A stretch of 64,000 nt of DNA, taken from assembly GCA_020634075.1 (NCBI GenBank), contig JACKCJ010000001.1, forward strand, positions 77,016 through 141,015, written 5' to 3'. This document shows positions 9,660 to 55,451 of this stretch, piece by piece; the stretch's first letter is position 1, and every line of letters begins with the position of its first letter. Source of the stretch: Dehalococcoidia bacterium (lineage in GTDB: Bacteria > Chloroflexota > Dehalococcoidia > UBA2979). Under the pieces are notes generated by a model. It did no database searches. It was given only the letters and a program-made list of their open reading frames with translations, and was not told the origin of the DNA. The translations under genes were made by a program, and so were the position numbers.

Positions 9660-11791
<2,132 letters not shown>

Positions 11792-11795
<4 letters not shown>

Positions 11796-13828: not shown

Positions 13829-17264
<3,436 letters not shown>

Positions 17265-17268
<4 letters not shown>

Positions 17269-30560: not shown

Positions 30561-32468
30561 CTAGGCCAGCGGGACGAGGCCCGGCTTCGGCGCCTTGGCG
30601 CGCTTGCCCATCACTTCCGGAGCGACGTCGAAACATGCGCCGCAGCGGATGCACGCCTCGTCGATGACGCGGCGGCGACCAGGCTCACCCTGGATGGCGG
30701 CCGTCGGGCAGATGTCGGCCGCGGCGGCCGCCTGCTCCTCCGGGCGCTGGTGGGCCACATAGACCTCGTACATGCCCTTGAGCGTGAGCGTCGGGTCGAC
30801 GCCCAGCAGAGCCGCCTCGAAGTCGTTCTTGAAGTGGACACGCGTGTTGCGCGTGATCTTCGGGCTGAACTGGCCGTGCACGCAGTTGGAGAACTGCACG
30901 GTGCGGTCGATCAGCGCGAGGTTCGGGTCGTCCTCGCGGCGGCCCTCCCCGTCGATGATGCGACGGATGATCTCGGTCTGTCGCTGGTTGCCGCCGTGGC
31001 AGGTGGTGCAGCGGCCGCAGGACTCTTCCTCGACGAACGCGGCGAGCGCCTCGGTCATCACGAGGACACTCGTCTGGTCGTTCATGAAGACCATGCCGCC
31101 GCCGCCCATGATGGCGTCCCACGGGCTGAAGGAGTCCGGCTGCAGGATCAGCTTCGGGAGCGCCTCGGGCGGCAGGAGCGAGCCCAGCGGCCCGCCCGAC
31201 TGGATGGCCTTCAGCTGTCCACCCTGGATGCCGCCACAGACGCGGAGACAGTCCTCGAGGCGGGTCGCGAACGGGACTTCCATGAACCCGACGCGCGGGA
31301 TGTCACCGGAGAACGAGAAGATCTTCGTCCCGGACGCCTTGTCCGAACCGTGCTCCCGGTACCACTCGGAGTTGTGCTGGATGATCAGCGGGACGTTCGC
31401 GAAGGACTCGACGTTGTTCACGTTCGAAGGCTTGTTGAACACACCGCGCTGCGCCGGGAACGGCGGCTTCACGCGCGGCATGCCGCGAGAGTCCTGGATC
31501 GAGGAGAGCAGGCCCGTCTCCTCGCCACAGACGTACGCGCCGGCGCCGCGGACGACGCGGAGGCGGAACTCCATGCCCGTGCCCAGCACGTCGTCGCCGA
31601 GGATGCCCGCAGCCTCCGCCTCCTTGATGGCGCGCTCCATGCGCTCCACCGAGAACGGGTACTCGTCCCGGAGGTAGATGAAGCCGACCTTCGCCTTGGT
31701 GGCGTAGCCGCCGATGAGCATGCCCTCGATCAGGAGGTGCGGGTCGCCCTCCATGACCACGCGGTTCACCCACGCGCCCGGGTCGCCCTCGTCGGCGTTG
31801 CAGACCATGTAGTGCTCGTCGCCGGCGGCGCCGAAGAGGAAGTTCCACTTCACGCCGGTCGGGAAGTTCGCGCCGCCGCGGCCGGTGAGGCCGGCGTCGT
31901 TCAGCTGGTTACGGACGGCCTCCTCGGAGAGGTGCCGGCCGAGCATGCGCGCGGTCGCGCGGTAGCCGTCACGCGCGATGTAGTGCAGAAGGTTGTCCGG
32001 GTCGGTCAGGCCGAGGTTCCGCATCAGCCGGCGCTCGCGCGGCTCAAGGCTGAAGAACTCGTGGTCACGGATCGAGGGGACGCCCTCGTGGGTGCCGGTG
32101 ATCATGCCGATGCGGATGTCCGCTGCCGCGCCCCACGTCCCGGTCGCCTCGTCGACGATGCGGCCCGCGTCCTCCGGACGCACGGGGCCGTAGAGCACGG
32201 TCTCGCCGTTCGGGAACGTGATCTGGACGCTGGGGTGGATCCACTGCATGCCGTAGCCGTGGACCTGGCCCATGTCGACGGCGGCGTTCCGCTCCGAGAT
32301 CACCCGGTGGATCGCGATGCCGGTCGCCCGGGCCCCGTTCGCGAGGCTCGAGGTGTCCATGGCGATGTCGATGCGCGGCCGCTCGGGGTTACGCCACGCG
32401 GCGTACTCGGCGTCGGCGCGCTCGCGGAGGGCGTCGTACTTCTGGAGTGCGATGTCCGACTCAGGCAT
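30561..32468 (-). CDS. NADH-binding FMN/Fe-S subunit, NuoF / formate-dehydrogenase-beta (FdsB)-like, with a C-terminal 2x[4Fe-4S] ferredoxin domain
   Basis: NuoF core motifs: NAD binding (GRGGANFPTGVKW), FMN site (ADEGDPGA), SLBB domain and 4Fe-4S cluster (ESCGRCTTC). Extra Cys-free N-terminal ~100 aa like FdsB. C-terminal CIRCGAC ferredoxin domain. Confidence 0.85.
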   Translation of the reverse strand: MPESDIALQKYDALRERADAEYAAWRNPERPRIDIAMDTSSLANGARATGIAIHRVISERNAAVDMGQVHGYGMQWIHPSVQITFPNGETVLYGPVRPEDAGRIVDEATGTWGAAADIRIGMITGTHEGVPSIRDHEFFSLEPRERRLMRNLGLTDPDNLLHYIARDGYRATARMLGRHLSEEAVRNQLNDAGLTGRGGANFPTGVKWNFLFGAAGDEHYMVCNADEGDPGAWVNRVVMEGDPHLLIEGMLIGGYATKAKVGFIYLRDEYPFSVERMERAIKEAEAAGILGDDVLGTGMEFRLRVVRGAGAYVCGEETGLLSSIQDSRGMPRVKPPFPAQRGVFNKPSNVNNVESFANVPLIIQHNSEWYREHGSDKASGTKIFSFSGDIPRVGFMEVPFATRLEDCLRVCGGIQGGQLKAIQSGGPLGSLLPPEALPKLILQPDSFSPWDAIMGGGGMVFMNDQTSVLVMTEALAAFVEEESCGRCTTCHGGNQRQTEIIRRIIDGEGRREDDPNLALIDRTVQFSNCVHGQFSPKITRNTRVHFKNDFEAALLGVDPTLTLKGMYEVYVAHQRPEEQAAAAADICPTAAIQGEPGRRRVIDEACIRCGACFDVAPEVMGKRAKAPKPGLVPLA

Positions 32469-33006
32469 TGATCGCCCCGTCCAGGTCTGAACCGTCGCGG
32501 AGTGCGCGCGCCATGCGGACGGCGCGGGCGGCGTTCATGTTGCCCACCGGCGTCTGCGTCGGGCCGTGCTCGCCGTGCTGCTCGAGCCACACCATCGGAG
32601 CCAGCTCACAGCACCCGTTGCACTGGCCGAGCACCATGCCGACGCGGCCGTCCTCGGTCTGCTCGTGGAGCTCCTCCATGCCGAGCGTCACGAGCATCGC
32701 GTCGCGGATGCCGTTGGAGTTGCGGAGGCGGCACGCCGGGCCCGAGCACCAGCGGACGGTGGTCTGAGCCGGCGGGTGGAAGCGGAACTCGTCGTAGAAC
32801 GACGCCGCCCCGTAGAGGATCGAGGGGAACATATCGAGTTGCTCGGCGATGACCTCGAGCGATTCCTTGCTCAGGTAGCCGAACTCGTGCTGGACCCGGT
32901 GGAGGGCCGTCATCATGTCGCCGTTGTTCGGACGCAGGTCCGCGACGAGCGCCCGCACGCGGGCTTTGGCTTCGGTCTCCAGCGGCATGGGCAGCCTCTC
33001 GACCAC
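32461..33006 (-). CDS. NuoE / FdsG-like thioredoxin-fold [2Fe-2S] subunit
   Basis: Cys pattern WCSGPACRL ... GQCNGCCELAP of the 24-kDa subunit family. Its 3' end overlaps the nuoF-like start by 8 nt. Confidence 0.8.
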   Translation of the reverse strand: MVERLPMPLETEAKARVRALVADLRPNNGDMMTALHRVQHEFGYLSKESLEVIAEQLDMFPSILYGAASFYDEFRFHPPAQTTVRWCSGPACRLRNSNGIRDAMLVTLGMEELHEQTEDGRVGMVLGQCNGCCELAPMVWLEQHGEHGPTQTPVGNMNAARAVRMARALRDGSDLDGAINA

Positions 33007-33137
33007 ACGAGGCGCATCGGCCCCGTGTCCATCACGAAACGCCCTCTTCGGGCTCCCCGCAATCTACCGCAGGTACACCCTCGGGCCAAGACGAGGTCCG
33101 AGGAGCTTCAGGACGCACCGATGTCGGATCTCGAGGC

Positions 33138-33332
33138 CTACTTCGACTTTCGTCCGAACGCGCCGAGGAATGGCGATCCCGCCCCGAGCATGAAGCCGAA
33201 GTCGTACCAGTTGCCGCTCCGCAGGACGTTGTAGAGCGGGAACTCCTTCCACGCGCCGAACACGTGGACGATGAGCACGATCCACGCCGTCAGGCCGTTC
33301 CAGGCGCCCCAGAGGAAGTCCTGCCACCACAT
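33138..33332 (-). CDS. small aromatic-rich membrane protein (64 aa from the internal ATG; GTG at 33356 would give 72 aa)
   Basis: GGAGG sits 8 nt upstream of the ATG at 33332. Two hydrophobic segments. It lies between the FAD-oxidoreductase and nuoE-like genes. Family unknown. Confidence 0.35.
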   Translation of the reverse strand: MWWQDFLWGAWNGLTAWIVLIVHVFGAWKEFPLYNVLRSGNWYDFGFMLGAGSPFLGAFGRKSK

Positions 33333-33409
33333 GCGCCGCCTCCAGTGCCGCGTCACGCCCCGGTGAGCGGAGTATGAGGCACCTCGGACCGCGCGAGGTC
33401 AGGCCAAGG

Positions 33410-34807
33410 TCACGCGCCCGGAGGGACGGCGGCCCCGACTTCGCGCGGGTGGCCGGCGCCGGAGTGGTCGCTCTCGACGAGCTGCGCCACGCGCCGGCCC
33501 ATCCGCAGCGAGTAGTTCTGCCCACGGTCCTCGGGATAGATCTGCGTCGTGTTCGCGAGGTAGAGGCCGGGGATCGGCGAGCGATGCGGCGGGATGATCT
33601 CGTGGTACCCGACGCGGACGACCGGCTGGCCGGCGCGATCGCGGAACACCCACTGGTCCTGGATCCACGATCGCTCGAACTTCGGGTTGATGCGCTTCAG
33701 CCACGGCTCGTACAGGTCGAGGAGCTCCTCGACGCTCATCTGCGCCATCGGGTCATTCGGGCTCATGTAGTCCGAGAGGTAGACGATGTGCTTCCCGCCG
33801 TACGTCGAGGGCGGCAGGAAGTTCGTCTGTTCCACCGCGACGACGAACGGAGCATCGTCGTCGGTCATCGTCAGCCAGTAGATGTCCGACAACGCCCGGT
33901 CCAGCGTGATCACCACCACGGTCGCCCACTGGTACTGCACCGCGTCCAGCATCTGCGCATAGCGCTGTCCGGCAGCGCCGCTCGACTCAAGCTGCGGGAC
34001 GATCTTCCGGAACAGCCCCGACGGCGTCGTCGCGAGGATGGCGTCGGCGCGGTCCTCGCGACCGTCCTGGAGGCGCACACCCACGGCGCGACCGTCCTCC
34101 GTGATGACCTCCTGCACCGGCGCGCCGGCAGTCAGTGAGCCGCCGAGCTTCCGGCACGCCTCGACGAGGCCGTCGACGAGGCGCCCGAAGGAGCCCTTGA
34201 GGTAGCCCAGCTGCTCCTTCGCGAGCAGCCCACCGATGATCGGCAGCCCGCCCTTCGGCCGCGAGGCGAAGCGCAGGTAGATCTTGCCCCAGAACCAGAC
34301 CATCGAGACGTCCTCGGCGTGCTCCGAGAACTTCGCCTTCAGGAGCGGGCCCCAGACGCGGTCGTAGCCCTCGCGACCGACGCGGGAGCGGATCCATTCG
34401 GCGGCCCGGGTGCCCTCGTAGCGACGGAAGTCGTGGATCCGGCGCAACCAGAGCGCCGTGAGGCCCAGGCGGAGGCGCGAGAAGAGCGAGACGCGGTCGA
34501 ACTTCAGCAGGTCGAGCGCACCGACGAACGGGTAGTTCTTGCCGGCGGCGTGGAGGCCGACGTTCGAGTCGATCCACTCCACGTCCTTCGCGAGGTCGAG
34601 CTCCTCGAGGACACGCACGGCCTCGTCGTCGGACTGGAAGAGGTGGTGGTAGAAGATCTCGAGGCGTTCGCCGCCGACCTCGAAGGTGCGGACCTGCCCG
34701 CCAAACTCCGGGCTGGCCTCGTAGAGCGCGACCTCGTGCCCGCGCTTGAGCAGCTCGTACGCCGCGCCGAGGCCGGCCATCCCGCCTCCGATAACGATCA
34801 CCTTCAT
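33410..34807 (-). CDS. FAD-dependent oxidoreductase, amine-oxidase / phytoene-desaturase (HpnE/CrtI/PPOX-like) superfamily
   Basis: N-terminal Rossmann fold (MKVIVIGGGMAGLGAAYEL...ALYEASPEFGGQVRT). Start overlaps the stop of the flippase-like gene by 4 nt. Confidence 0.75.
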   Translation of the reverse strand: MKVIVIGGGMAGLGAAYELLKRGHEVALYEASPEFGGQVRTFEVGGERLEIFYHHLFQSDDEAVRVLEELDLAKDVEWIDSNVGLHAAGKNYPFVGALDLLKFDRVSLFSRLRLGLTALWLRRIHDFRRYEGTRAAEWIRSRVGREGYDRVWGPLLKAKFSEHAEDVSMVWFWGKIYLRFASRPKGGLPIIGGLLAKEQLGYLKGSFGRLVDGLVEACRKLGGSLTAGAPVQEVITEDGRAVGVRLQDGREDRADAILATTPSGLFRKIVPQLESSGAAGQRYAQMLDAVQYQWATVVVITLDRALSDIYWLTMTDDDAPFVVAVEQTNFLPPSTYGGKHIVYLSDYMSPNDPMAQMSVEELLDLYEPWLKRINPKFERSWIQDQWVFRDRAGQPVVRVGYHEIIPPHRSPIPGLYLANTTQIYPEDRGQNYSLRMGRRVAQLVESDHSGAGHPREVGAAVPPGA

Positions 34808-35928
34808 GCGTCCACCTTCGAGGGTTCAGCGATGCGCGCGCCGTCTCCGGGCGTCCCCGCGCCGGCCGGCGGCTCCGGGTCACCCTCGGCGATCTCATCC
34901 GCATCGGGCGTCAGGGTCTTGAGTCCGAGGTCCTGCCGCCAGATGAGGAGCAGGCCGATGATGGCGACGGGCACGAGGATCGTCGCGTGCAGGACGAGGG
35001 CGTAGGCCGTACCCGTCGCGGCCGGCACGCCGAAGCGTCCGACGACCTCGCGGGCGAAGTACTCGTACGGACCGATGCCACCGGAGGTGCTCGGGGCCGC
35101 CATCGAGAGGTTCGCGGCGCCACAGACGCCGAAGTAGATGCCGATGTCGAGGCCCAGGCCGAACGCTTCGCCGACGGCCCAGCACGAGAGCGCTTCCAGC
35201 GCCCACGAGAGCGTGGTCAGGCTCGTCACGACGACCCACGCCCGCCCGGTGCGCATCGGGGCGAGGCCGGACATGAACCGGTCCGCCCAGCCCTCGGCGC
35301 GCTCACGGATGCGTCCGGGCAGCAGGCGCAGCCCGAAGGCGGTCAGCCGCGCCCCGAAGACGGGGCGCGTGGCGAGCAGCACGATGATCGCCGTCAGCAC
35401 GATGAACGCGCCGCCAACGAGCGCGGCGAAGATCTGGAGCGGCGTCGTGCCTCCCGCGAGCGCGATCGTCGCCGCGAGGAAGATCGCCAGCACCAGGCCA
35501 TCCAGGATCCGCTCGACGAGGATCGTGGCGAGGACGGCGAAGCCGGAGATGCCGCGCTGACGCTTCAGGAGCACCGCGCGGACGATCTCGCCGGTGCGGG
35601 CCGGGAGCACGTTGTTCGCGGCGAGCCCGATCGTCATCAGCGACGCGGCCTCGGTCTGGCTCAGCGGCGCGATGGGCTTGAGGATGGCCGCCCAGCGCTG
35701 CGCCCGCACCCACACGCTCGCCCCAAACAGGAGCAACGACACGGTGATCCAGGCGGGCGAGACGCCGGCGAGCGCGTCCATGAGCTCGTTGCCATCGACC
35801 TGCCGGAGGAGCAGGACGAGGAACACGAGGCTGACCCCGAGGCCCAGGATGATGCGGAGGTGGCGCACGGTGCTTCGGTCTCTCAGCTCATCGCGCGCCG
35901 GTAGCTCGCACCGGCACGCCGCCGGCAC
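34804..35928 (-). CDS. lysylphosphatidylglycerol-synthase-TM-domain / UPF0104 'flippase-like' membrane protein
   Basis: 8 predicted TM helices with the TIGR00374-like NNVLPARTGE motif. The start may be an internal GTG. Confidence 0.7.
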   Translation of the reverse strand: MPAACRCELPARDELRDRSTVRHLRIILGLGVSLVFLVLLLRQVDGNELMDALAGVSPAWITVSLLLFGASVWVRAQRWAAILKPIAPLSQTEAASLMTIGLAANNVLPARTGEIVRAVLLKRQRGISGFAVLATILVERILDGLVLAIFLAATIALAGGTTPLQIFAALVGGAFIVLTAIIVLLATRPVFGARLTAFGLRLLPGRIRERAEGWADRFMSGLAPMRTGRAWVVVTSLTTLSWALEALSCWAVGEAFGLGLDIGIYFGVCGAANLSMAAPSTSGGIGPYEYFAREVVGRFGVPAATGTAYALVLHATILVPVAIIGLLLIWRQDLGLKTLTPDADEIAEGDPEPPAGAGTPGDGARIAEPSKVDA

Positions 35929-35992
35929 CGCGAGCTGAACGCGGGTACGTACTCACCCGATCCAGTGTGGGTCATACTCGCCGCCAGCGTCA

Positions 35993-37990
35993 CTAGTCGG
36001 AAAACCCCGTATCGCGCGAATTAACCGTTGCATTCTTCGGGAAGTACACCTCGGCCTGCAGCGATCCGATCCGCTCCACGTCGCCACGATGGACGAGGAA
36101 GTTCGTCCACTCGTCGATCAACTCGCCGGACTTCAGTTCATCGAACAGGCCGCTCAACGTCGTGGCGCGGTAGCCGGCCTCCGGGAACCACCAGCGGTGC
36201 GGGTACTGCACCGGCGCCTGGTACATGTTCCGCACGTCGGGGCGTCCGCTGACGAAGCCCCGCGTCGTGATCACGATGTCATCCGGCTTCAGCGTCTCCG
36301 TGTTGATCTGATCCTTGTCGATGTAGGTGACATTCAGTCCGCGGAGATACCACGCCCACGGCCACGTGAGTGACTGGTCAGTGTGAATCACCACGCGGTT
36401 CGCCGTCCCCTCTCGCAGCGCGGCACGGATGTCGTCCGCGATCGGCAGGAGGCGCGGCGAGGTCTGGACGTAGATCAGCGGCTCGACGGGCGTATCCGGG
36501 TTCACACGGTTGAGGTTCCAGTCGACGCGCACCGCGAGGACGCCCAGCAACAGGAGGAACGTCGTGGCCGCCGAGGCGCTCGCCCACTGGAGCGTGCTCC
36601 CGCGTCCCCGCCGCACCGCCGCTGCCGCCCGCGGGACCACGCGCCCGATGACGTACGCCGCGAGGAAGCACAACGGCAGGGCGAGGTGGAACGTGAGCCA
36701 CGGCATCTTCTCGCCGGCATAGGAGAGCGCCGCGAACATCGAGAGGAACCAGAACACGCCGAGCGCGGCGAACCAGTCGCGTCGCACGACCGTCAGCCAG
36801 AGACCACCGATCAGCCCCGGGATGAGTACGAGCGACTCATACAGCGGCACCAGCCAGAAGTAGTAGAACCACGGCTGGGTGCCGCGTCGCACCTCCTGCT
36901 GGTCGATCCAGTAGTCGAGCGACGTCCAGAATGCGCCGGCAATGCCGGTCGGGTGCGTGCCCCACGTCGTGTAGAGCGGCACGAGCACCAGCAGATACGC
37001 GGCGACGCACCAGATCCACCAGCGCGGTTGCCACGCGGCGCCGACCGCGGCCGCGACGACGAGTGTGATCGGCACGACGATGGTCGCGAGGTCGCGACGC
37101 ATCGCGTCGTCGACATCGTGACCGAGCACCATCACCGGGATCTCAACGGCCGCGGAGAGCAGCGGCAGCACCAGTGTCGCCGTGACAACGAGCATGTCCG
37201 CGCTGCGCGGACGTCGATACCAGCCGTACCGCGATCGGAGGCGTCCGAGGAACGGCCAGCCGACGGCGATGAGCCAGGCGACCGGGGTCAGCACGAGGCT
37301 GCCGCGCGCCTGCTGGAACAGCGTGGCGCCCTCCAGCCGCTCGCGGCGCGGCTGCCAGAAGAGGTCATGGGCCAGCCAGGCGTTCTGGTAGAGCAGCAGG
37401 ATCGCGGCGATCAGGTAGGCGGTCTCCTTCGCCGCGAACTGCAGCGCGAGCATCGCCGAGTAGATCACGAGCCAGCGAGGGCGCCCGTCGCGGCGGTAGT
37501 GGAGCATCGCCCCGACCATCACGACGAGGAACAGCCCGACGAACGGCTCGTTCCGGGCGAACCGCGAGTAGTACATGATCGACGGCGACAGCAGCAGGAA
37601 CACCGACGCGAGCACGATCGACGGCCCGTTCAGCCATCGGCGGAACAGGAGTGGCGAGGCGACAAGCGCCGTCCCCGCGAGCGCGTGCGGTAACCGGCCG
37701 GTGAACTCCGAGTCCCCGAAGAGCTTGAAGAACGCCGCAATCAGGTGGAACTGCAGCGGGCCGTGCATGAGCGGGTTGTGCTCGTAGCCGCGCCCCTCGA
37801 AGAAGTACCACCCGTACATGAGGTGCAGCGACTCATCGTGGTGCAAGGCGCGGGCACCCAGCCCGATCACGCGCGTGGCGAGGGCGATCGCGGTGATGCC
37901 GATCACCATCCAGGTGACGCGGTCCCACGACCGGACATCGAAGCGGAGGCGCGACCTCGACCGCGCCGCGGTGCTCACGGCGAGACTCAC
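35993..37990 (-). CDS. TIGR03663-like polytopic membrane protein (GT-C / PMT-like N-terminus)
   Basis: 665 aa with more than 12 TM helices. N-terminal region (HHDESLHLMYGWYFFEG...HGPLQFHL) resembles PMT/ArnT-like glycosyltransferase-C. WFYYFWLVPLYE segment. Start overlaps the DUF2298 stop by 4 nt. Confidence 0.65.
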   Translation of the reverse strand: MSLAVSTAARSRSRLRFDVRSWDRVTWMVIGITAIALATRVIGLGARALHHDESLHLMYGWYFFEGRGYEHNPLMHGPLQFHLIAAFFKLFGDSEFTGRLPHALAGTALVASPLLFRRWLNGPSIVLASVFLLLSPSIMYYSRFARNEPFVGLFLVVMVGAMLHYRRDGRPRWLVIYSAMLALQFAAKETAYLIAAILLLYQNAWLAHDLFWQPRRERLEGATLFQQARGSLVLTPVAWLIAVGWPFLGRLRSRYGWYRRPRSADMLVVTATLVLPLLSAAVEIPVMVLGHDVDDAMRRDLATIVVPITLVVAAAVGAAWQPRWWIWCVAAYLLVLVPLYTTWGTHPTGIAGAFWTSLDYWIDQQEVRRGTQPWFYYFWLVPLYESLVLIPGLIGGLWLTVVRRDWFAALGVFWFLSMFAALSYAGEKMPWLTFHLALPLCFLAAYVIGRVVPRAAAAVRRGRGSTLQWASASAATTFLLLLGVLAVRVDWNLNRVNPDTPVEPLIYVQTSPRLLPIADDIRAALREGTANRVVIHTDQSLTWPWAWYLRGLNVTYIDKDQINTETLKPDDIVITTRGFVSGRPDVRNMYQAPVQYPHRWWFPEAGYRATTLSGLFDELKSGELIDEWTNFLVHRGDVERIGSLQAEVYFPKNATVNSRDTGFSD

Positions 37991-40356
37991 TGGGCGTTCC
38001 CCGTCACCGGGTCCTCGTAGAGCAGGCGCGCGAAGACATCAGGGGTGTACGGGGTCTGGAAGACCTGCAGACTCGGGGTCGAGAAGACGATCGGCCAGCC
38101 GGCGAACCGCTGCGAGACCCGGACGCCGTAGGCGGCGCGCTCCGGATGCCCCACGACCACGTGGGTGATGCCCCAGTCGTAGACAGTGTCGAGCTGGTCG
38201 GGCCGGTCGCCGGTGTAGAGCGTCTCGATGGCGGCGCGACGCGCATCCTCGCGGATGTCGCTGTGCCACTGTCGCTCGTGCCCGGGCCATCCGAGGAGGG
38301 TCGGAATGCCCGTGAACGCGGAGAACCGATTCCCGGCGTCGTAGGACTCGCTGATCGCTTCGGCGACGATGTCCTCCTGGGGATTGAGTTCGTCGCGGCC
38401 CCAGCGCAGGGCGCTGAAGAACCCGGGATCGTTCCGTTCAAGGTACCCGATGGCGCTCAGACCGTGCCCCTGCCCTTCGCGCGATCGCGCGACCGCGGCC
38501 ATCGGCGGCGTGATCATCGTCGCGACGGTGACCAGCAGCCCGGCCCAGCCGATCGTCCGCCCGATCCGTTGGACGCTCCATCCCCCCTCGAGGTTCCCCG
38601 CTCGAGCCTCGCGCCGTCCGAGGACACGCTCGCTCGCGAGCGCGAGGAGCGCGGCGCCACCGACGGACAGCATCGCCCAGGCGTGGAACCAGAACTTGAA
38701 CGCGGTGTTGAGGCGCCCCGGGAAGGAGTCGTCGATCTGGACCAGCTCGGTCAGGTAGAGGAGGCCCAGGGCGCACATCACGAGGAACGCCCCGGCGGCG
38801 CCGGCACGCCGGCCCAGCGGCTCCGAGGACACCGTTGCGGCGACCGCGGCAAGCGCCATGCCGAGCAGCACGATCGTGATCCAGCCCCAGCTGCGTGCGG
38901 CCACCTCGGCGGACGCGCCGGTGCCAATCAGCCACGCCGTCCACAGCCCGATCGGCAACACGACGAACGTCGCCGCGTCGACCAACCGACGCTGGCTCGG
39001 TCGCCACGTGAACGCCAGTCCAATGATGGCGGGGACCAGGAGCGGCAGCCAGAACAGCAACCAGCGCCCGGCGTCCGAGTACTCACCCTCCACCGGCGCG
39101 AGGCCGAGCGGCTGAGGGTCGAGCGTGTCGAAGAACGTCCACGCGAAGGCCAGCGCCAGCACCGCCGGCGCGAGCGCCCAGCGGACGGCGAGGAATCCGC
39201 CGAGGATGAATGGCCAGCCGGTCCGGCACGCACTCCACCACGCCGCCACGCCCCACAGCGCCCCGTAGGTGATGACATCCCAGGAACTCGTCATGACCAG
39301 CCCAGCGAACACGGCTGCCGTCAGGACGAGGTGGTCGGGACGTGCGAACCAGCGACGCCAGCTGAGGGGCGTCGAGCCCTCGAAGACCTGGACCCCAAGC
39401 GCCATGGCGACGATGCCGAGCGGCAGCGCGAGGAGGTGCGGGTGCGGGTCACCGAGGACGAGCGAAAACCCGGGGTACTCGCTGATCACGCCCGGGATCA
39501 CGCGGGTCGTCGGCCACCACCACCAGAACCGATCGGGGACGAGGTTGGTCGCGCCGACCTTCGTCGGTACGTCCTCGATCCCCAGCCAGCCCCACGCGGC
39601 CTCGCCTCCGATGCCGTTCGCGGAGGCGATCTGCACCAGCCCGACCAGCGGCGCCACGAGGAGCAGCGCGGCCACGGCCGTCCCGCCGGCGATGAGTTGC
39701 GTTCGGCGCCGCCTCGGCCCGCCGAGCTGAACGATGTCGATCGCGAGGCCCGCCACGGCCGCGGCGGCCATCGCGCCGACGGCGGCGGTGGCGAGGTTGA
39801 ACGCGCGCTCCGGCGGCTCGCCGGAAAGCCTCGCGACGTGGTCCACCTCGACCTGGCCGAGGTGGTAGTAGGAGAGCCGTTCGCCCGCGAGCCACGGGTC
39901 CAGCGGCGGGAGCTCGCGGGCGCTATGCACGGCGTTCAGCAGCATGAGGTCGGCGGGCTTCTCCGTCCCCCACGCGTCAGGCGAGCCGACGCGCGCGAAC
40001 AGCACGACCGCGAAGACCGCGACGGTGATGCCCTCGGACGCGAGGAGGGGGCGCCAGCGCGATCGCAATGCACCGAGGAGCTCGCGTCGCCAGCCGAGCA
40101 GCGCCAGCGACACCGCGCCCAGCGTCGCCACCGACGCGATGACCATCGGCGTGCCGTACGGCACGTCCGTGAGCCGCACCACCAGCCAGGTCAGCAGCGC
40201 GGCGGTCGCGAGGCCAAGCGGACGCGCGAAGTACACCCCGCGAGAGCTCAGGCGCTCGAACAGGGCCGCTGCCGGCACCAGCCCGACGAGCCCGAACAGG
40301 GCGAGGGCGAGATACCACCAGAGCGCCGACGCGACGATCGCTCCGTCCACGACCAC
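37987..40356 (-). CDS. DUF2298 / Chlor_Arch_YYY (TIGR03662-like) large polytopic membrane protein
   Basis: 789 aa, about 20 hydrophobic segments, SYYHLG and FWWWWPTTRVIPG motifs, and a C-terminal soluble domain. Begins 15 nt after the ftsY stop. Confidence 0.65.
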   Translation of the reverse strand: MVVDGAIVASALWWYLALALFGLVGLVPAAALFERLSSRGVYFARPLGLATAALLTWLVVRLTDVPYGTPMVIASVATLGAVSLALLGWRRELLGALRSRWRPLLASEGITVAVFAVVLFARVGSPDAWGTEKPADLMLLNAVHSARELPPLDPWLAGERLSYYHLGQVEVDHVARLSGEPPERAFNLATAAVGAMAAAAVAGLAIDIVQLGGPRRRRTQLIAGGTAVAALLLVAPLVGLVQIASANGIGGEAAWGWLGIEDVPTKVGATNLVPDRFWWWWPTTRVIPGVISEYPGFSLVLGDPHPHLLALPLGIVAMALGVQVFEGSTPLSWRRWFARPDHLVLTAAVFAGLVMTSSWDVITYGALWGVAAWWSACRTGWPFILGGFLAVRWALAPAVLALAFAWTFFDTLDPQPLGLAPVEGEYSDAGRWLLFWLPLLVPAIIGLAFTWRPSQRRLVDAATFVVLPIGLWTAWLIGTGASAEVAARSWGWITIVLLGMALAAVAATVSSEPLGRRAGAAGAFLVMCALGLLYLTELVQIDDSFPGRLNTAFKFWFHAWAMLSVGGAALLALASERVLGRREARAGNLEGGWSVQRIGRTIGWAGLLVTVATMITPPMAAVARSREGQGHGLSAIGYLERNDPGFFSALRWGRDELNPQEDIVAEAISESYDAGNRFSAFTGIPTLLGWPGHERQWHSDIREDARRAAIETLYTGDRPDQLDTVYDWGITHVVVGHPERAAYGVRVSQRFAGWPIVFSTPSLQVFQTPYTPDVFARLLYEDPVTGNAQ

Positions 40357-40371
40357 CGACCTCGAGCGGTG

Positions 40372-41457
40372 CTACCGCCCGCTGGGCAGCGGCTGCCCGA
40401 GCAGGGACGCGACGAACGAGCGCGGCTCGAAGGGCGCGAGGTCGCTCTCGCGCTGGCCGACACCGACGAACCGCACGGGGAGACCGAACTCCTTCGCGAT
40501 CGCGAAGACGATGCCGCCCTTCCCGGTGCCGTCGAGCTTGGTGAGCATGACGCTCGTGACGTCGACGGCCTCGGCGAACGCCTTCGCCTGCGAGAGTCCG
40601 TTCTGACCGGTCGTCGCATCGAGCACCAGCAGTACCTCGTCCGGCCCGCGCGGGATGTGCCGCTCGATCACGCGGCGCACCTTGGACAACTCGGCCATGA
40701 GGTTCTGCTTGTTCTGGAGGCGGCCGGCCGTGTCGATGAGGACGACGTCGGCGTCCCGTGCCTGCGCGGCCTGGACGGCGTCGAAGGCGACGGCCGCCGG
40801 GTCGGCGCCCTGCCCCTGGGCGATCACCTCGAACCCGACGCGCTCACCCCACTCCTGGATCTGCTCGATGGCGGCGGCACGGAAGGTGTCGCCGGCCGCG
40901 GCGACGACCTTCTTGCCCTCCTGCATGTAGCCCCACGCGAGACGTCCGATGGCGGTCGTCTTGCCGGTGCCGTTCACCCCCACCACGAGCACGATGTGCG
41001 GCCGCGGCGGCTCCTCGTAGCTCGCCGGGAGCGGCCCCCACAGGCGACCGCGCGGTTCCTCGACGGCCTCGAGGATCGCGACCAGCTCGGCGGCGAGCGC
41101 GTTGCGCACGTCGTCCGCCTTGCGGAGGTTCAGCGACCGGACCCGCTCGACAACCTCCAGCGTGGTCGGCACGCCGACGTCAGCGCCGATGAGGATCTCC
41201 TCGAGCGACTCCCAGGTGTCCTCGGTGACGTCGGCGGAGAAGACCTCGGTCAGCCGCCCGAGGAATGAGCGACGGGTGCGCTCGAGCGCAGCGTCGGTCG
41301 CGGCGGCGGCGGCTGCCTCCTGTCGCGCTTCCTCGGCGTCCTCATCAGCGTCCTCGAGGTCGTCGAGGTCCTCGACCGGCTCCTCGACCGCTGGCGCCTC
41401 GTCGCGAGGAACCTCGGGTGTCTCTTCCTTCTTGCGTCGACGTCCAAAGAACGGCAC
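40372..41457 (-). CDS. ftsY: signal recognition particle receptor FtsY
   Basis: Acidic N-terminal domain. SRP-GTPase motifs VGVNGTGKTT, DTAGR and TKLD. Confidence 0.9.
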   Translation of the reverse strand: MPFFGRRRKKEETPEVPRDEAPAVEEPVEDLDDLEDADEDAEEARQEAAAAAATDAALERTRRSFLGRLTEVFSADVTEDTWESLEEILIGADVGVPTTLEVVERVRSLNLRKADDVRNALAAELVAILEAVEEPRGRLWGPLPASYEEPPRPHIVLVVGVNGTGKTTAIGRLAWGYMQEGKKVVAAAGDTFRAAAIEQIQEWGERVGFEVIAQGQGADPAAVAFDAVQAAQARDADVVLIDTAGRLQNKQNLMAELSKVRRVIERHIPRGPDEVLLVLDATTGQNGLSQAKAFAEAVDVTSVMLTKLDGTGKGGIVFAIAKEFGLPVRFVGVGQRESDLAPFEPRSFVASLLGQPLPSGR

Positions 41458-41614: not shown

Positions 41615-44600
41615 CTATGCGGTCTTCGGCAGGTCCGCCAGCCGGAGCGACAGCACCTGGCTCGCGGAGTCGTCACCCATCGAGATGCCGTAGATGGCGT
41701 CCCCGGCCTCGATGGTGCGGCGGTTGTGCGAGATGACGACGAACTGTGTCCGGTCCCGGAGCTCGAGGAGCGTGTCCACGAACCGGCCGACGTTCGCCTC
41801 GTCCAGCGCCGCGTCCACCTCGTCCAGCACCACCACCGGCGCCGGGTTCACCGAGAGCAGCGCGAACAGCAGCGCGACCGAGGTCATCGAACGCTCACCG
41901 CCGGACAGCACGGCCATGTTGGTGATCCGCTTGCCGGGAGGCTGGGCGAAGATGTCGACGCCCGGCTCGGCGTCCGAGTCGTCCTCGGACTCCAGCAGCC
42001 GGAGCTCCGCCTGCCCGCCCCCGAAGAAGCGGGTGAAGTACGTCCCGAAGCGCTCGTTGACGAGGTGGAACGTCTCCACGAAGCGCTCCCGGATGAGCTT
42101 CTTGAGCTCCCGGATCGCCTCGCGCAGCTCCGCCTCCGCCGCCTCGAGGTCCTCGACCTGAGAGGACAGGAAGTCGAACCGCTCCTGCTCGGTGGTCAGC
42201 TCATCGACCGCTTCGACGTTTACCGGGCCCAGCGCCCGGATCTCGCCGCGCAGTTCCGAGATGCGCTCGCGCAGCGCGGGCACGTCCACCTCGGCGCCGC
42301 CGCGGAGCGGTACCGGCGCGGCGACCTCGACGTCATCGTCGTCGGTGTCGTACTCGGACCGGGGCGGGTCGCCCTCGGGGATCGCCTTCGGCAGCGGCTT
42401 CACGGAGCCGTCGTCGCGGATCTCCATGCCCTCTTCCGAGATCTCCCGGTAGAGGGACTGGAGGCGCTCCGCCGCTCGGCGCAGCCGGTTCTCGGACTCG
42501 AGCATCTCGCGCTCGGTGCCGAGGACTGCCCGCTGCGAGTCGCCCCGGTTCGCCGAGAGCTCGCGCTCCTCGGACGTCAGCTCCGCCACGAGGGCGTGGG
42601 CCGGGCCGATCTGCTCCTGCACGTCCGTCCGCTCGGTGCGGAGGTTCGCCTGCCGCTCGCGACGGTCGCGGAGCTGCAGCTCGAGGTCCTCGCGCTCGCG
42701 GGTGATCTGCTCCAGCAACGCCTTCCGCTCCTGGAGTTGCGTCAGCGCCTGCGTCCGGGCGGCGACGCGCTCCTCGCGCTGAGCCGCGAGCGACCGACGC
42801 TCGGCCTCGGCGCTCGCGAGCGCCTGCGTCGCCTCGGTCACGCGGGCCGCCGCGGCGTCACGCTCGCCACCGACGGCGGTCGAGCGGTCGCGCAGCGAGG
42901 TGATGCGCTCCGTGACCTCCTCGATGGCGGTCGCGGTCGCCTGCTGTCGCTCACGCAGCTCGTCGCCGCGCGGCGCGTCCGCCGGGTTGTCCTCGATGCG
43001 CCGGGTGAGCGCACGCGCCTCGGAATCGATCTCCGCCTGGCGGCGCTCCAGCGCCGTCCGCGCCCCCGCGTGCTGGCGACGGGCCTCTTCGGCCTCGTCG
43101 ACGACACGGCGAGCGGCCGCGACGGCGTCCTGTGCCTCGCGGAGCGCCGCCTGGGCGCGCTCGACCTCGGCCTTCGCCGGCTCGATGGCGCGCTGGGCCT
43201 CCGCGACCTGGTCGGGCAGCCCCTCCAGTTCACGCTGCATGGAGAAGCGCTCGGACACGCCACCGGTGCGGCCGCCGTACATCGCGCCGCCCGGCCGCAG
43301 CAGCGTGCCGTCACGCGTCACGACGGAGCCGAGGCCCCGCGTGATCATCGCCTCGGCGACACGCATGTCCTCGACGACGATGACGCGGCCGAGCAGCGTG
43401 TCGACCAGCGGCCGGTACTGCTGCTCGCAGCGCACGAGGCGCGCGGCGATCCCGACGACGCCGCGCTCGTTGAAGAGGTTCAGGGGGTACTTGTGCTCGA
43501 TCTTGGCGAGCGGGTAGACGGTCGCCGTGCCGGCGCCGTGTTCCTTGAGCCACGCCAGCGCCGCGACGGCGTCCTCGTACTTCTCGACCACGATCGCCGA
43601 GAGGTGCTCCGCGAGCGCCGCCTCGATCGCAGTCTCGAGGCCCTCCGGAACGCGGATCAGCCGCGCGACGGCGTCGACGACGCCAGCCAGCGGGTGCTCC
43701 TCGCCCTCGGGCGCCGGGTCCGCCTTGCCCTCGATGAGCGCCTGGGCGCCCCCGGTGGCCGACGGCATCGACTCCTGCAGTTCCTCGATGAGGCGGTGTC
43801 GCTCCTGCAGCGTCCGCACGCGGTCCTCGGCGGCACGGAGCGCCTGCTGAGCTGCGTCGAGCTCCTTGCGAGCTTCCTCGACGCGCCGCTCGGTCGCCTC
43901 GCGCCGCTCTCGCGCCATGCGGGCGGCCTCGGCACGGGCTTCGGCCTCACGCTCGTGCGCCTCGAGCGCCTGGCGCTGGGTCACACCCTCGGCCTGCAGC
44001 GCCTCCAGCGCGGCGTGCGCCTCCGCCTTCTCCGCGGTGCGGCGCTCCAGCCGGACGCGCTCTTCCTCGATGCGGCGACCGAGGTCCTCGCGCTCCGCTT
44101 CGAGGCGGGCCCGGCGGGCCTCGGCCTCGGAGAGGTCACGGAGGACGCTGCGCGTCGCCTCGTCCGCCGAGGCCAGCGCCTCGCGGTCGCGCTGCAGGCG
44201 CGCCTGCTCCTCGCTCACCTTCGCGTCGAGCGCGGCGAGCTGAGCATCGAACGACCCGGAGTCGTCCTCGGGGACATCGGCGATGGCGATCGCGCGTTCG
44301 AGCTCCTCGCGGCGCTCCGCGAGCAGCTCGAACCGCTGCTGCGCGAGGGCGACCGCCTGCTCGAGACGGAGCCCCTCCTCGGCCAGTTCGCGCTCCTTGC
44401 GCTGGAGGGTCTCCAGCGAGGTGCGTCGCTCACCGAGGACGGAGTTCAGCTCGCCCAGCCGCGACTCGATCTTCGCGAGGGCGTCGCGGGCCTCCGCGAA
44501 TGCCGCGCCCTTCTGGTCGTACTCGGCCTGCGCAGCCGTCTGACCCTCCTGGGCCGACTGCAGCTCGTGCTCGAAGTAGACCTCGAGGGCGTCGGACAGC

Positions 44601-45262
44601 TCGGCCGCCAGCTCCTTGTAGCGGGCGGCCCGCTTCGACTGGCGCTGGAGGGCGCGGATACGCGGCTCCACCTCGCGGATCAGCATCCGCACGTGGCCGA
44701 GGTTGTCGCGCGTCTCGACGAGGCGACGCTCGGACAGCGTGAGCTGGTGCCGGTGACGCCGCAGGTCCGCGGCCTCCTCGATCAGCTCGCGGCGGTCGCC
44801 GGGCTTGAGCGCGAGGACCTCGTCCACGAGACCCTGCGACATGTGCGCGTAGGAGTTCTGGCCCACCTGCGCTCGCCGGAACAGGTCGACCACGTCCGAG
44901 AGACGGACCGACTGCCCGTTGATGAGGTACTCGTTCTCACCGGAGCGGTGTGCGCGCCGGGTCACGGAGACCTCGGAGAACTCGATGGGCATCCAGTGCT
45001 CGGAGTTGTCGAGGATGAGCGTGACTTCCGCCATGCCCATCTGACGCCGCTTCTCCGAGCCGGAGAAGATGACGTCCTCCGTCTTGCGGGCGCGCACCTG
45101 CTTCTGGGACTGCTCGCCGAGCGCCCAGCGGATCGCGTCCGCCACGTTGGACTTGCCGGACCCGTTGGGCCCGGCGATCACGGTCATGCCGGGGCCGAAC
45201 TCGAACCGATGTCGGTCCGCGAACGCCTTGAAGCCGTGGACTTCTAGCCGTCTGAGGTACAC
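41615..45262 (-). CDS. smc: chromosome segregation protein SMC
   Basis: 1215 aa with N-terminal Walker A (GPNGSGKSN), long coiled coils, hinge, and C-terminal signature/Walker B (LSGGERSMTSVALLFAL...VLDEVDAALD). Confidence 0.9.
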   Translation of the reverse strand: MYLRRLEVHGFKAFADRHRFEFGPGMTVIAGPNGSGKSNVADAIRWALGEQSQKQVRARKTEDVIFSGSEKRRQMGMAEVTLILDNSEHWMPIEFSEVSVTRRAHRSGENEYLINGQSVRLSDVVDLFRRAQVGQNSYAHMSQGLVDEVLALKPGDRRELIEEAADLRRHRHQLTLSERRLVETRDNLGHVRMLIREVEPRIRALQRQSKRAARYKELAAELSDALEVYFEHELQSAQEGQTAAQAEYDQKGAAFAEARDALAKIESRLGELNSVLGERRTSLETLQRKERELAEEGLRLEQAVALAQQRFELLAERREELERAIAIADVPEDDSGSFDAQLAALDAKVSEEQARLQRDREALASADEATRSVLRDLSEAEARRARLEAEREDLGRRIEEERVRLERRTAEKAEAHAALEALQAEGVTQRQALEAHEREAEARAEAARMARERREATERRVEEARKELDAAQQALRAAEDRVRTLQERHRLIEELQESMPSATGGAQALIEGKADPAPEGEEHPLAGVVDAVARLIRVPEGLETAIEAALAEHLSAIVVEKYEDAVAALAWLKEHGAGTATVYPLAKIEHKYPLNLFNERGVVGIAARLVRCEQQYRPLVDTLLGRVIVVEDMRVAEAMITRGLGSVVTRDGTLLRPGGAMYGGRTGGVSERFSMQRELEGLPDQVAEAQRAIEPAKAEVERAQAALREAQDAVAAARRVVDEAEEARRQHAGARTALERRQAEIDSEARALTRRIEDNPADAPRGDELRERQQATATAIEEVTERITSLRDRSTAVGGERDAAAARVTEATQALASAEAERRSLAAQREERVAARTQALTQLQERKALLEQITREREDLELQLRDRRERQANLRTERTDVQEQIGPAHALVAELTSEERELSANRGDSQRAVLGTEREMLESENRLRRAAERLQSLYREISEEGMEIRDDGSVKPLPKAIPEGDPPRSEYDTDDDDVEVAAPVPLRGGAEVDVPALRERISELRGEIRALGPVNVEAVDELTTEQERFDFLSSQVEDLEAAEAELREAIRELKKLIRERFVETFHLVNERFGTYFTRFFGGGQAELRLLESEDDSDAEPGVDIFAQPPGKRITNMAVLSGGERSMTSVALLFALLSVNPAPVVVLDEVDAALDEANVGRFVDTLLELRDRTQFVVISHNRRTIEAGDAIYGISMGDDSASQVLSLRLADLPKTA

Positions 45263-46207
45263 CTAGGATCCACTTCCGGGGACCGCCGTGCCACCGGCTG
45301 TCCCGTGCTCCCCCGCCCCCGGTTGTTCGATCCCCGCCGGCGCGTCGCCCAGCTCTCGGAGCCGAGCCCGCACCTTCGGCAGCGCCTGTCGCGCCGCGTT
45401 CTTCTCTGCTTCTTGCTTGGTCCCTGCCTGCCCTCGTCCGAGGGCTTCGCCCTGGAGGTAGACCTCCACGGTGAACTCACGATCATGCTCGGGGCCGGAC
45501 TGGCCGACGAGCCGGTACTCCGGGCGTCCGAGGTGCTCCTGCGCGATCTGCTGGAGCGTGCCCTTCGGGTTCAGCACCCCCGGATCGCGCGCCAGCGCCT
45601 CGAACTCGTCCCCGAGCGTGCGTCGCACGAACTCGCCGGCGGTCGCCAGTCCTCGGTCGAGGTAGACGGCTCCGACGATGGCCTCGTACGCGCGCTCGAG
45701 GTTGCCCTCGCGTTCGCGACCGCCGGTCTGCTCCTCGCCACGTCCGAGCCGCAGCCAGGGGCCGAGGTCGAGCACGTCGACGGCGACACGCGACAGCGTT
45801 GGCCCGCAGACGAGGGCGGAGCGCCACTCGGTGAGGCGGCCCTCCTGCACCTGCGGGAAGCGCGCGTAGAGCTCCTCCGCGACGATCGCGCCGAGGATGG
45901 CGTCGCCCAGGAACTCGAGCCGCTCGTTCGTCGGCGCGGGGTCCTCGGGGTGTTCGTTCGCGAATGAGGGATGCGTCAGCGCCGCGTGGAGCAGCGCCGG
46001 GTCATCGAAATGGACGCCGATGACCGCCTCGAACGCAGCCACGTCGCCGGCCGGGAGGTCGGCGCCTGTGGGCGTGTCGGTGGGACGTTCAGAAGCCACG
46101 GTGATCAAGCCCGACCCTATCCAGACGCACGCGCCCCACCCGCGCGTACGATGTCGTCTGTAGGTCTGGCAGGATGTCGGGGAGAGAGAAACTGCCAGTT
46201 CAGGCAT
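45263..46207 (-). CDS. rnc: ribonuclease III
   Basis: RNase III signature ERLEFLGDAILG and a C-terminal dsRBD. Classic rnc-smc-ftsY synteny. The start is uncertain (an internal GTG is possible) and the C-terminal tail is Gly/Ala-rich. Confidence 0.85.
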   Translation of the reverse strand: MPELAVSLSPTSCQTYRRHRTRGWGACVWIGSGLITVASERPTDTPTGADLPAGDVAAFEAVIGVHFDDPALLHAALTHPSFANEHPEDPAPTNERLEFLGDAILGAIVAEELYARFPQVQEGRLTEWRSALVCGPTLSRVAVDVLDLGPWLRLGRGEEQTGGREREGNLERAYEAIVGAVYLDRGLATAGEFVRRTLGDEFEALARDPGVLNPKGTLQQIAQEHLGRPEYRLVGQSGPEHDREFTVEVYLQGEALGRGQAGTKQEAEKNAARQALPKVRARLRELGDAPAGIEQPGAGEHGTAGGTAVPGSGS

Positions 46208-55180: not shown

Positions 55181-55451
55181 GTTCACAGTCCCGTCTGGAC
55201 CGTTCTCGGACGGGCATTCAGCCCCGCTATAGCGGATTGCGGGTACAGGGCACCGCTAGAGCCCCGCCTAGCACGACCGTTTCCGATCGTAACAGCCTCA
55301 CCCGGCAAGCCGCGACTGACGGGCCCTCGCACGGGGGATCGCCCCCGCGCGGATCGAGGCGTAGCCTGTCGCCCCACGAGGTCAACGGTCGGCGCGCATC
55401 CCGTCCTCGAGGTTCAGCCCGGCGCGCCACGGAATCGGAGTGGCTCTTCAT

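Follow-up and report, generated by a model that had tools for sequence, protein, structure and literature searches.

What is the role of the four genes that lie directly behind ftsY, the gene of the signal recognition particle (SRP) receptor, in a member of the Dehalococcoidia? The question is raised by a 64,000-nucleotide (nt) stretch of DNA (the window; contig JACKCJ010000001.1 of assembly GCA_020634075.1, positions 77,016 to 141,015) from a metagenome-assembled genome (MAG) deposited as Dehalococcoidia bacterium. These genes, together called the cassette here, encode a DUF2298/TIGR03662 (Chlor_Arch_YYY) protein, a TIGR03663/Agl23-type protein, a flippase-like membrane protein and a flavin adenine dinucleotide (FAD) oxidoreductase (Table 1). 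On balance, we favour the reading that the locus is a system that puts sugars on cell-surface molecules, by the steps proposed below. The first-pass annotation of this DNA had suggested a lipid-linked glycosylation or envelope-polymer system, and the GT-C glycosyltransferase folds and conserved synteny described here support that suggestion by computational means. Family calls were made with Pfam and NCBIfam hidden Markov models (HMMs) at curated cutoffs; these bore out the four co-directional genes behind ftsY and their families as named earlier. Judged by the same thresholds, the predicted proteins are members of TIGR03662, TIGR03663, LPG_synthase_TM and NF005560, and not of the oligosaccharyltransferase (OST), MprF, HpnE, CrtI, protoporphyrinogen oxidase (PPO) or DprE1 families.

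Conservation of the cassette behind ftsY

A DUF2298 profile scan over one genome per GTDB species returned 583 relatives, and the best 80 of these were all from Chloroflexota MAGs. The loci surveyed were these best 80 of 583 and two from a protein index; they were searched by tblastn with the window proteins, and each position was counted only in loci with enough flank. ftsY was identified directly upstream of the DUF2298 gene in 68 of 77 loci, the Agl23-type gene directly downstream of it in 60 of 67, and the four cassette genes in order, with the flippase-like gene at the same position, in 53 of 59. The first-pass annotation had noted that TIGR03662 and TIGR03663 co-occur and had staked its proposal on the four genes being syntenic in other genomes; both are seen in these counts. 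The complete string of ftsY, DUF2298, Agl23-type, flippase-like and FAD oxidoreductase genes, in order and in less than 12 kb, is present in 54 loci with 51-75% GC and 27-50% DUF2298 identity, and such an arrangement in 54 independent loci is far beyond chance. The linkage to ftsY as a mere by-product of an rnc-smc-ftsY cluster was ruled out: in 26 of the 54 loci (for example L090) smc does not adjoin ftsY and the linkage persists, so that the link is to ftsY itself. The median gap between ftsY and the DUF2298 gene is 17.5 nt and the median at both coupled gene pairs is -4 nt; it is plausible that the cassette is co-transcribed with ftsY.

Junctions in the window were read from the sequence. 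The TAG stop codon of ftsY (40374-40372) is separated from the GTG start of the DUF2298 gene (40356) by a 15-nt gap with GAGG, the Agl23-type gene starts on the DUF2298 stop (GTGA, 37990-37987) and the flavoenzyme gene starts on the stop of the flippase-like gene (ATGA, 34807-34804). The 15-nt spacing and the two 4-nt overlaps are as first reported, whereas two earlier figures required correction: the inner gap between the coupled pairs is 64 nt (35992-35929) instead of 65 bp, and the coordinates 34804-40356 given for four genes span only three, the body of the FAD gene at 33410-34807 having been omitted. In GenBank the DUF2298 protein is a "hypothetical protein" of 787 amino acids (aa), implying an alternative GTG at 40350. 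Of the deposited proteins of the MAG, MCB9490535.1 is 100% identical to the 665-aa Agl23-type protein and MCB9490533.1 is exactly the 465-aa flavoenzyme.

The window has a GC content of ~70%. GC by codon position marks out a single minus-strand string of genes that runs from rnc through smc and ftsY into the cassette, and within it the set of six minus-strand open reading frames (ORFs) formed by smc, ftsY and the cassette genes has a third-position GC content (GC3) of 0.91-0.93. Long plus-strand ORFs over the region (e.g. 38146-41268) were rejected as high-GC artefacts, as both GC3 and homology favour the minus-strand genes. A promoter and terminator scan called no terminator-like hairpins between the cassette genes or in the intergenic stretch that ends the cassette, and the sole sigma-70-like site that it placed in 32.4-46.4 kb (46235-46206, upstream of rnc) is weak evidence; the scan is uninformative since the expected background is similar. 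No Rfam families were found at 30-48 kb.

The DUF2298 and Agl23-type proteins

The DUF2298 protein possesses about 15-16 hydrophobic or transmembrane (TM) helices and a C-terminal globular domain (aa ~616-789) that is predicted to be extracytoplasmic. Its AlphaFold model is confident (predicted local distance difference test, pLDDT, 94.3) and matches only GT-C glycosyltransferases, with AftA as the best structural match. The AF2 model of the Agl23-type protein (pLDDT 89.0) gave Foldseek matches to ArnT, AglB, STT3, Pmt4, ALG9 and ALG12; between them, the two models match ArnT, STT3/AglB, PMT, ALG9/12 and AftA. Because these confident models match only GT-C enzymes, both large proteins are, as modelled, GT-C-fold proteins, and neither HMM nor structure searches reassigned them to unrelated families, an outcome that the first-pass annotation had named as fatal to its proposal. 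To our knowledge, the characterised GT-C enzymes among the structural matches all use lipid-phosphate-linked donors.

Neither STT3 nor PMT was matched in 12 DUF2298 proteins in a Pfam scan even at E<=10, no OST was found in PDB sequences with the DUF2298 profile, and sequence and profile searches of PDB sequences gave nothing useful as solved-structure relatives of the three membrane proteins. A profile-profile comparison found no similarity between DUF2298 and the Agl23-type family, so that no paralogy between them can be seen from sequence. At E<=1e-3, DUF2298 is matched by 10,710 clusters of 50% identity, and this large family includes giant proteins of 1,700-2,750 aa with two or three DUF2298 regions and a ~700-aa N-terminal extension (P0366-P0380).

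Members of TIGR03662 are strongly hydrophobic proteins of 700-900 aa with a YYYxG motif. In the window protein this motif reads S-Y163-Y164-H-L-G167: Y163, Y164 and G167 are invariant across domains, and the third Tyr is His. Residues invariant from Chloroflexota to archaea are these three together with D153, W155, P295, H305, E537, R548, N550, K554 and E739, while E132, D136, E293, D303, H693 and W697 are nearly invariant. On the positive-inside rule and the helices of the model, the conserved residues are predicted to face outside, some in the C-terminal domain and the others in loops 122-190, 245-306 and 537-554; E132, D136 and D153 are in the first long outside loop, which comes after the fourth helix.

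In the model, the C-terminal domain of DUF2298 resembles that of AglB/STT3, and the architecture is OST-like without OST sequence motifs. Compared with STT3, AglB and PglB, the protein has no STT3 sequence similarity (PF02516, TIGR04154), no WWDYG and no DK/MI motif, it has ~16 TM helices and not 13, and its genomic partner is a monosaccharide-type GT2 (glycosyltransferase family 2) enzyme, not an oligosaccharide assembly pathway. OSTs have two DXD motifs (EL1, EL2) followed by TIXE/SVSE (EL5). It has been described that AfAglB carries a TIXE motif and an Asp-His-His second "DXD" motif (PMC8342417). A TIxE-like (T/V)I(T/S/N)E293 string and GD303xH305xH307 are conserved in DUF2298, 10 residues apart with the TIxE-like string first, so both are in one loop and in reverse order relative to OST; the resemblance may be due to chance and is treated as a lead.

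The TIGR03663 signature consists of an invariant N-terminal DE dipeptide, an HGP tripeptide and two Arg residues. Invariant in 58 Agl23-type sequences are H50-H51-D52-E53, H76-G77-P78, R99, R117, R143, R146 and G-E-K-M-P-W-L. The N-terminus of the window protein is predicted to be inside because it is Arg-rich, which places HHDE directly after TM1 in the predicted first outside loop, with HGP in the same loop. It is here, after TM1, that PMT/ArnT-type enzymes canonically carry their catalytic acid. In comparison with Methanoregula Agl23 (32%/24% identity), HHDE, HGP and GEKxPWL are conserved.

The earlier description of TIGR03663 as a family without known function is outdated, since the genetics of Haloarcula Agl23 (Lu et al. 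2020, Mol Microbiol, as cited in PMC11182771) and a flippase assay have been published: purified HhAgl23 translocated Man5GlcNAc2-PP-dolichol (M5GN2-PP-Dol) in proteoliposomes, and Haloarcula Agl23 suppressed a yeast rft1 deletion (PMC11182771). The Agl23-type protein could accordingly be a flippase or scramblase of lipid-linked sugars, with DUF2298 as the sole transferase and the LPG_synthase_TM protein and flavoenzyme serving some other step, e.g. returning or modifying free carrier lipid. The NCBIfam name of TIGR03663, 'flippase activity-associated protein Agl23', fits this alternative, as does a core operon of Methanomicrobiales in which no Agl23 gene is adjacent (see below). We nevertheless regard it as unlikely: the Agl23-type protein has a full GT-C fold in the model and the invariant DE-type acidic motif in its first outside loop, as in PMT/ArnT-type transferases, and conservation of the operon extends to a distinct flippase-like gene. 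Furthermore, the PMT_2 proteins of the Agl23-type clade frequently carry fused NHL beta-propellers, a hint that acceptors are bound extracellularly.

These fusions occur among the longer PMT_2 proteins of a distant clade, some of which carry NHL domains, and in some lineages the cassette GT-C proteins are predicted to gain extracytoplasmic beta-propeller modules. A DUF2298 protein with an FG-GAP insertion was also identified, as were extra ORFs without a Pfam or NCBIfam match between the DUF2298 and PMT_2 genes in three distant loci (Table 1). A second DUF2298 gene is present in one locus.

The Haloarcula hispanica Agl22/Agl23 pair is the closest point of comparison for the 665-aa protein, which passes the TIGR03663 model with its DE, HGP and Arg signature intact. 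Within this pair, Agl22, a GT2 like that of the archaeal operons described below, forms dolichyl-phosphate (Dol-P) hexose, and Agl23 is defined experimentally by its contribution to the use or flipping of Dol-P-hexose. The window protein differs from archaeal Agl23 in being bacterial, in its ~24-32% identity, in an extra ~150-aa C-terminal domain and in its split HMM match. The activity reported for Haloarcula Agl23 is flipping, and descriptions of Agl23 do not pair it with the other three cassette proteins.

The flippase-like protein, the flavoenzyme and their gene neighbourhoods

The flippase-like protein is of the MprF flippase-domain type. Neither an aminoacyl-phosphatidylglycerol (aminoacyl-PG) synthase domain nor a bifunc_MprF match was found in it with Pfam and NCBIfam. 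The flavoenzyme belongs to a family of amine-oxidase fold (NF005560, PRK07233) and carries the N-terminal FAD-binding GxGxxG motif VIGGGMAGLGAA; its only match in PDB sequences is a distant structural-genomics entry (3ka7). Assignments as HpnE (99 bits, cutoff 283), CrtD (53, cutoff 580), PPO (48.7, cutoff 97.85) or crtI_fam (42.9, cutoff 238) were rejected. As these scores are below the cutoffs, the protein is not considered a PPO, HpnE or CrtI, and methanogen homologues have been called PPO by similarity only.

A related gene set was identified in archaea. Three Methanomicrobiales contigs, including those of Methanoculleus bourgensis and a Methanoregula, encode an operon of overlapping genes in the order NF005560 flavoenzyme (444 bits), a 238-aa GT2, LPG_synthase_TM protein and DUF2298, the last once or twice. 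The best matches of the GT2, all weak, are a haloarchaeal dolichyl-phosphate hexose transferase, ArnC and AglJ, and the archaeal flippase-like protein gave weak matches to the MprF and GlcN_PG_flip models. The operon is flanked by cetZ and by L7Ae-S28e-L24e-ndk genes. The window flavoenzyme is 31% identical over its full length to that of the Methanoculleus operon (E 8e-52). In view of this and of the operon itself, the set of flavoenzyme, flippase-like protein and DUF2298 is, on sequence evidence, a unit conserved across domains, accompanied in its archaeal form by the GT2 that would synthesise a lipid-phosphate sugar. Methanoregula further encodes a full-length TIGR03663/Agl23 protein (416 bits end to end) at a distance of 3 kb from its DUF2298 operon, so the two families also co-occur there. 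That Agl23 gene lies 9 nt after the EF-1alpha and S10 genes, which parallels the bacterial placement behind ftsY (Table 1).

The flippase-like protein and flavoenzyme might instead form an independent lipid-remodelling pair that, like MprF, GpgSDF and HexSDF, makes or exposes modified phospholipids or glycolipids, their adjacency to the GT-C genes being inherited gene order. The 64-nt gap does part the two coupled gene pairs, characterised LPG_synthase_TM-type proteins handle lipids of the Lys-PG and GlcN-PG type in synthase-tailoring-flippase operons, and the archaeal homologue matches the MprF and GlcN_PG_flip models, if weakly. Against this stand the single operon of overlapping flavoenzyme, GT2, flippase-like and DUF2298 genes in Methanomicrobiales, the four-gene order retained across deep divergence in Chloroflexota, and the absence of a lipid synthase or deacetylase partner from the cassette, and we hold such a pair to be quite improbable.

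A second question concerns the substrate of the flavoenzyme. It is possible, although we lean against it, that the enzyme acts on the carrier lipid, saturating or modifying an isoprene unit of polyprenyl phosphate to give a dolichol-type, archaeal-style carrier, with the rest of the model unchanged. The characterised families that score best after NF005560 (HpnE, CrtD, CrtI, CrtO and carotenoid isomerase) all target isoprenoid C-C bonds, which favours action on the isoprenoid chain, and the flavoenzyme family is common to the dolichol-using Methanomicrobiales. The models of these isoprenoid enzymes all score far below their cutoffs, however, and there would be no need to couple an enzyme of the general carrier lipid so tightly and pathway-specifically to a single flippase-like gene. 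Moreover, the alternative redox neighbour of DUF2298 is a sugar-modifying DprE1/DprE2 pair. DprE1 and DprE2 epimerise a polyprenyl-phosphate pentose and so feed GT-C arabinosyltransferases. The pair is found in a metagenomic bacterium (Table 1), where the DUF2298/TIGR03662 gene is immediately followed by genes for DprE1-like (NF053785, 466 bits) and DprE2-like proteins, and these by genes for WecB and a pair of PMT_2+PA14 proteins; the locus may be regarded as a candidate for lipid-linked glycosylation of the arabinose type outside Actinobacteria. Both this neighbourhood and the pathway-specific coupling speak for the lipid-linked sugar as the substrate. A further bacterial contig (L084) encodes a PMT_2+DUF2298 fusion of 1489 aa and then a second DUF2298 protein.

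In four Chloroflexota loci a DedA/VTT gene (~220 aa) is inserted between the PMT_2 and flippase-like genes (Table 1). The DedA family includes undecaprenyl phosphate flippases that recycle this carrier (PMC11474028, PMC12893004), and these insertions therefore fit the glycosylation model. Together with the archaeal GT2 and the DprE1/DprE2-like neighbours, they suggest from context that a lipid-phosphate-linked donor may be used here.

Beyond the cassette, 403 nt past the flavoenzyme gene, lies a pair of NuoE-like (2Fe-2S thioredoxin-like) and NuoF-like (Complex1_51K, 635 aa) genes. Of 53 loci, 11 have such a pair no more than 600 nt downstream of the flavoenzyme gene, and 20 have it at a distance of up to 5 kb (loci listed for the pair: L004, L006, L008, L009, L012, L014, L016, L022, L030, L049 and L079). 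It could provide the electron partner of the flavoenzyme or could simply reflect conserved gene order.

Elsewhere in the window, seven co-directional alpha-glucan genes form a GlgE-pathway cluster, encoding an isoamylase-like protein (CBM48), the GlgE maltosyltransferase, a 1183-aa TreS-maltokinase-type fusion, GlgB, a GH57 amylase/glucanotransferase and two further alpha-amylase-family proteins. The true starts of several of these ORFs are probably later, since in the list they begin 60-240 nt before the end of the preceding gene. Two further features are given in Table 1.

Table 1. Coordinates of the cassette, its neighbours and further features in the window and in other surveyed loci
Location	Coordinates	Strand	Feature	Evidence or remark
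Window	45263-46207	(-)	rnc	family match; first gene of the co-directional string
Window	41615-45262	(-)	smc	family match; GC3
Window	40372-41457	(-)	ftsY (SRP receptor)	TIGR00064, 336 bits
Window	37987-40356	(-)	DUF2298/TIGR03662 (Chlor_Arch_YYY), 789 aa	TIGR03662 353.3 bits (cutoff 300.25) over aa 11-747; PF10060 268.6 bits (cutoff 27.8)
Window	35993-37990	(-)	TIGR03663/Agl23-type, 665 aa	TIGR03663 251 bits (cutoff 126.25) in two stretches, the best covering model positions 3-210 of 435; PMT_2 aa 76-201
Window	34804-35928	(-)	LPG_synthase_TM/TIGR00374 flippase-like membrane protein, 374 aa	LPG_synthase_TM 153.3 bits, aa 26-325; TIGR00374 69.6 bits
Window	33410-34807	(-)	NF005560 (PRK07233) FAD oxidoreductase, 465 aa	NF005560 450.2 bits (cutoff 252), aa 1-448; Amino_oxidase 126 bits
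Window	33007-33409		intergenic stretch, 403 nt	ends cassette; NuoE/NuoF-like genes beyond
Window	30561-33006	(-)	NuoE-like and NuoF-like pair	
Window	9660-25625	(+)	GlgE-pathway cluster	seven genes
Window	48711-51533	(-)	940-aa fusion	RNase_T-type exonuclease and DinG-like helicase (DEAD + Helicase_C_2)
Window	55440-56789	(+)	449-aa ORF	GC3 0.95, coding-type; no Pfam match at E<=1e-5
L026	8278-8937		DedA/VTT insertion	
L027	7304-7966		DedA/VTT insertion	
L028	16082-16744		DedA/VTT insertion	
L031	16071-16730		DedA/VTT insertion	
L002	12052-15246		NHL fusion of PMT_2/TIGR03663	
L028	13182-16055		NHL fusion of PMT_2/TIGR03663	
L088	7087-10923		NHL fusion of PMT_2/TIGR03663	
L090	8001-11717		DUF2298 with FG-GAP insertion	1238 aa
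L002	10415-12055		extra ORF between DUF2298 and PMT_2 genes	546-579 aa in the three loci
L080	7122-8828		extra ORF between DUF2298 and PMT_2 genes	as above
L081	12361-14100		extra ORF between DUF2298 and PMT_2 genes	as above
L087 (Methanoregula)	1837-5064		Agl23 gene behind EF-1alpha and S10	
L089 (metagenomic bacterium)	8001-16940		DUF2298/TIGR03662 with DprE1-like, DprE2-like, WecB and two PMT_2+PA14	

A proposed glycosylation route and its relation to known systems

In the route that we favour, a GT2 would make a polyprenyl-phosphate monosaccharide at the cytoplasmic face of the membrane, this enzyme being encoded in the operon in Methanomicrobiales and outside the window in Dehalococcoidia. 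The PRK07233-type flavoenzyme would then modify the lipid-linked intermediate, with a slight lean towards the sugar or head group over the isoprenoid chain, and the MprF-type flippase-like protein would carry it to the outer leaflet. There, the two unrelated GT-C-fold enzymes, DUF2298 with its AglB-like outer domain and the PMT-like Agl23-type protein, would use the flipped donor to glycosylate extracytoplasmic acceptors. The genes would be translationally coupled in pairs and probably transcribed with ftsY. Of this route, family membership, folds, gene order with its archaeal GT2-bearing version, and conserved residues in loops predicted to be outside come directly from the data, and the rest (donor, acceptor, direction of flipping, flavin chemistry, co-transcription) is inferred. 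For the acceptors, secreted or surface proteins are the likeliest candidates, with a lipoglycan as a possibility; proteins are favoured because the architecture is PMT/OST-like, because NHL and PA14 modules occur as fusions, and because the bacterial genes follow ftsY and the archaeal ones adjoin translation genes.

Several points weigh against this route. No GT2 was found in the operon or the 64-kb window (tblastn with the archaeal GT2; Pfam on window genes), so that the donor-making step is assumed, and Pfam found no other glycosylation genes among the remaining window genes. Characterised MprF-type flippases move modified phospholipids or glycolipids and not polyprenyl-phosphate sugars; the nearest characterised relatives of the flavoenzyme (HpnE, CrtD/CrtI and PPO) act on isoprenoids or tetrapyrroles and not on sugars; and Haloarcula Agl23 was reported as a flippase in proteoliposomes and not as a transferase (PMC11182771). 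DUF2298 also occurs alone, without the partners, in an Anaerolineae locus (L042) and a Haloarculaceae locus (L083). Lastly, literature searches found no functional study of DUF2298, TIGR03662 or PF10060; "Y_Y_Y" matches in the literature concern an unrelated domain.

The proposed route has its closest parallels in multi-component transmembrane glycosylation, in which a GT-A/GT2 enzyme loads polyprenyl phosphate, a flippase moves the product and a GT-C enzyme transfers the sugar outside, the partners often being encoded at separate loci (PMC8035078). The systems compared were GtrB/GtrA/GtrC, CsbB/GtcA/YfhO, GtlA/GtcA/GtlB and ArnC/ArnD/ArnEF/ArnT (PMC8035078). As in these systems, a dedicated flippase-like protein accompanies GT-C-fold proteins, two in this case, and a lipid-phosphate sugar would be flipped and used outside by a polytopic GT-C protein; PMT_2-type GT-C proteins are common to both, and the GT2 or flippase may lie elsewhere. 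ArnD sets a precedent for tailoring a lipid-linked sugar before flipping. The cassette differs in that its flippase-like part is of the MprF/LPG_synthase_TM type and not GtrA, Wzx or EmrE, in its two unrelated tandem GT-C proteins, one of them DUF2298, in an obligatory amine-oxidase-fold flavoenzyme, in a bacterial operon without GT2, and in a string fixed behind ftsY. With regard to the mycobacterial DprE1/DprE2 enzymes and the Emb/Aft transferases, the window flavoenzyme has the amine-oxidase fold and not VAO/FAD_binding_4, and the cassette has no DprE2-type reductase. The MprF flippase domain and the GpgSDF and HexSDF systems share the Pfam family LPG_synthase_TM and the order synthase, tailoring enzyme, flippase with the proposed route. 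Unlike these, the cassette has no aminoacyl-PG synthase domain and its tailoring would be by a flavoprotein, not a deacetylase; as GT-C proteins are present, the flipped lipid would be a donor rather than an end product.

A bolder version of the proposal may be put forward, to which we give little credence: DUF2298 would be a hitherto unrecognised, very divergent STT3/AglB relative, built of a GT-C core and an AglB-like outer domain and carrying TIxE-like and D-x-H-x-H strings, that glycosylates secreted proteins from a polyprenyl-phosphate monosaccharide, the flavoenzyme and MprF-type protein as its obligatory partners would bring a new donor chemistry and transport, the module would have been exchanged between Methanotecta and Chloroflexota like the archaellum, and its fixation behind ftsY would reflect coupling to SRP-dependent export. 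The archaellum has been exchanged between Methanotecta and Dehalococcoidia/Anaerolineae, and the bacterial filaments appear to be O-glycosylated (PMC12488501).

Our literature searches found nothing on the four-gene cassette behind ftsY, on the cross-domain core with a GT2, or on a GT-C/AglB-like architecture of DUF2298. The co-occurrence of TIGR03662 and TIGR03663 is already noted in the family descriptions, Agl23 has been studied before, and the overall logic is familiar. Large as the DUF2298 family is, it has no characterised member and no solved structure; flavoenzymes of the PRK07233 type have not been studied either, and are often wrongly annotated as protoporphyrinogen oxidase. The locus and its archaeal counterpart provide a concrete, testable assignment for four families at once. 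They also bear on whether Agl23 is a flippase or a transferase, as a separate flippase-like gene is found here beside an Agl23-type protein with transferase-like motifs. More broadly, they point to a surface-glycosylation route that would be common to Dehalococcoidia and methanogens, lineages known to have exchanged surface machinery in the form of the archaellum (PMC12488501) and whose envelopes are both poorly understood.

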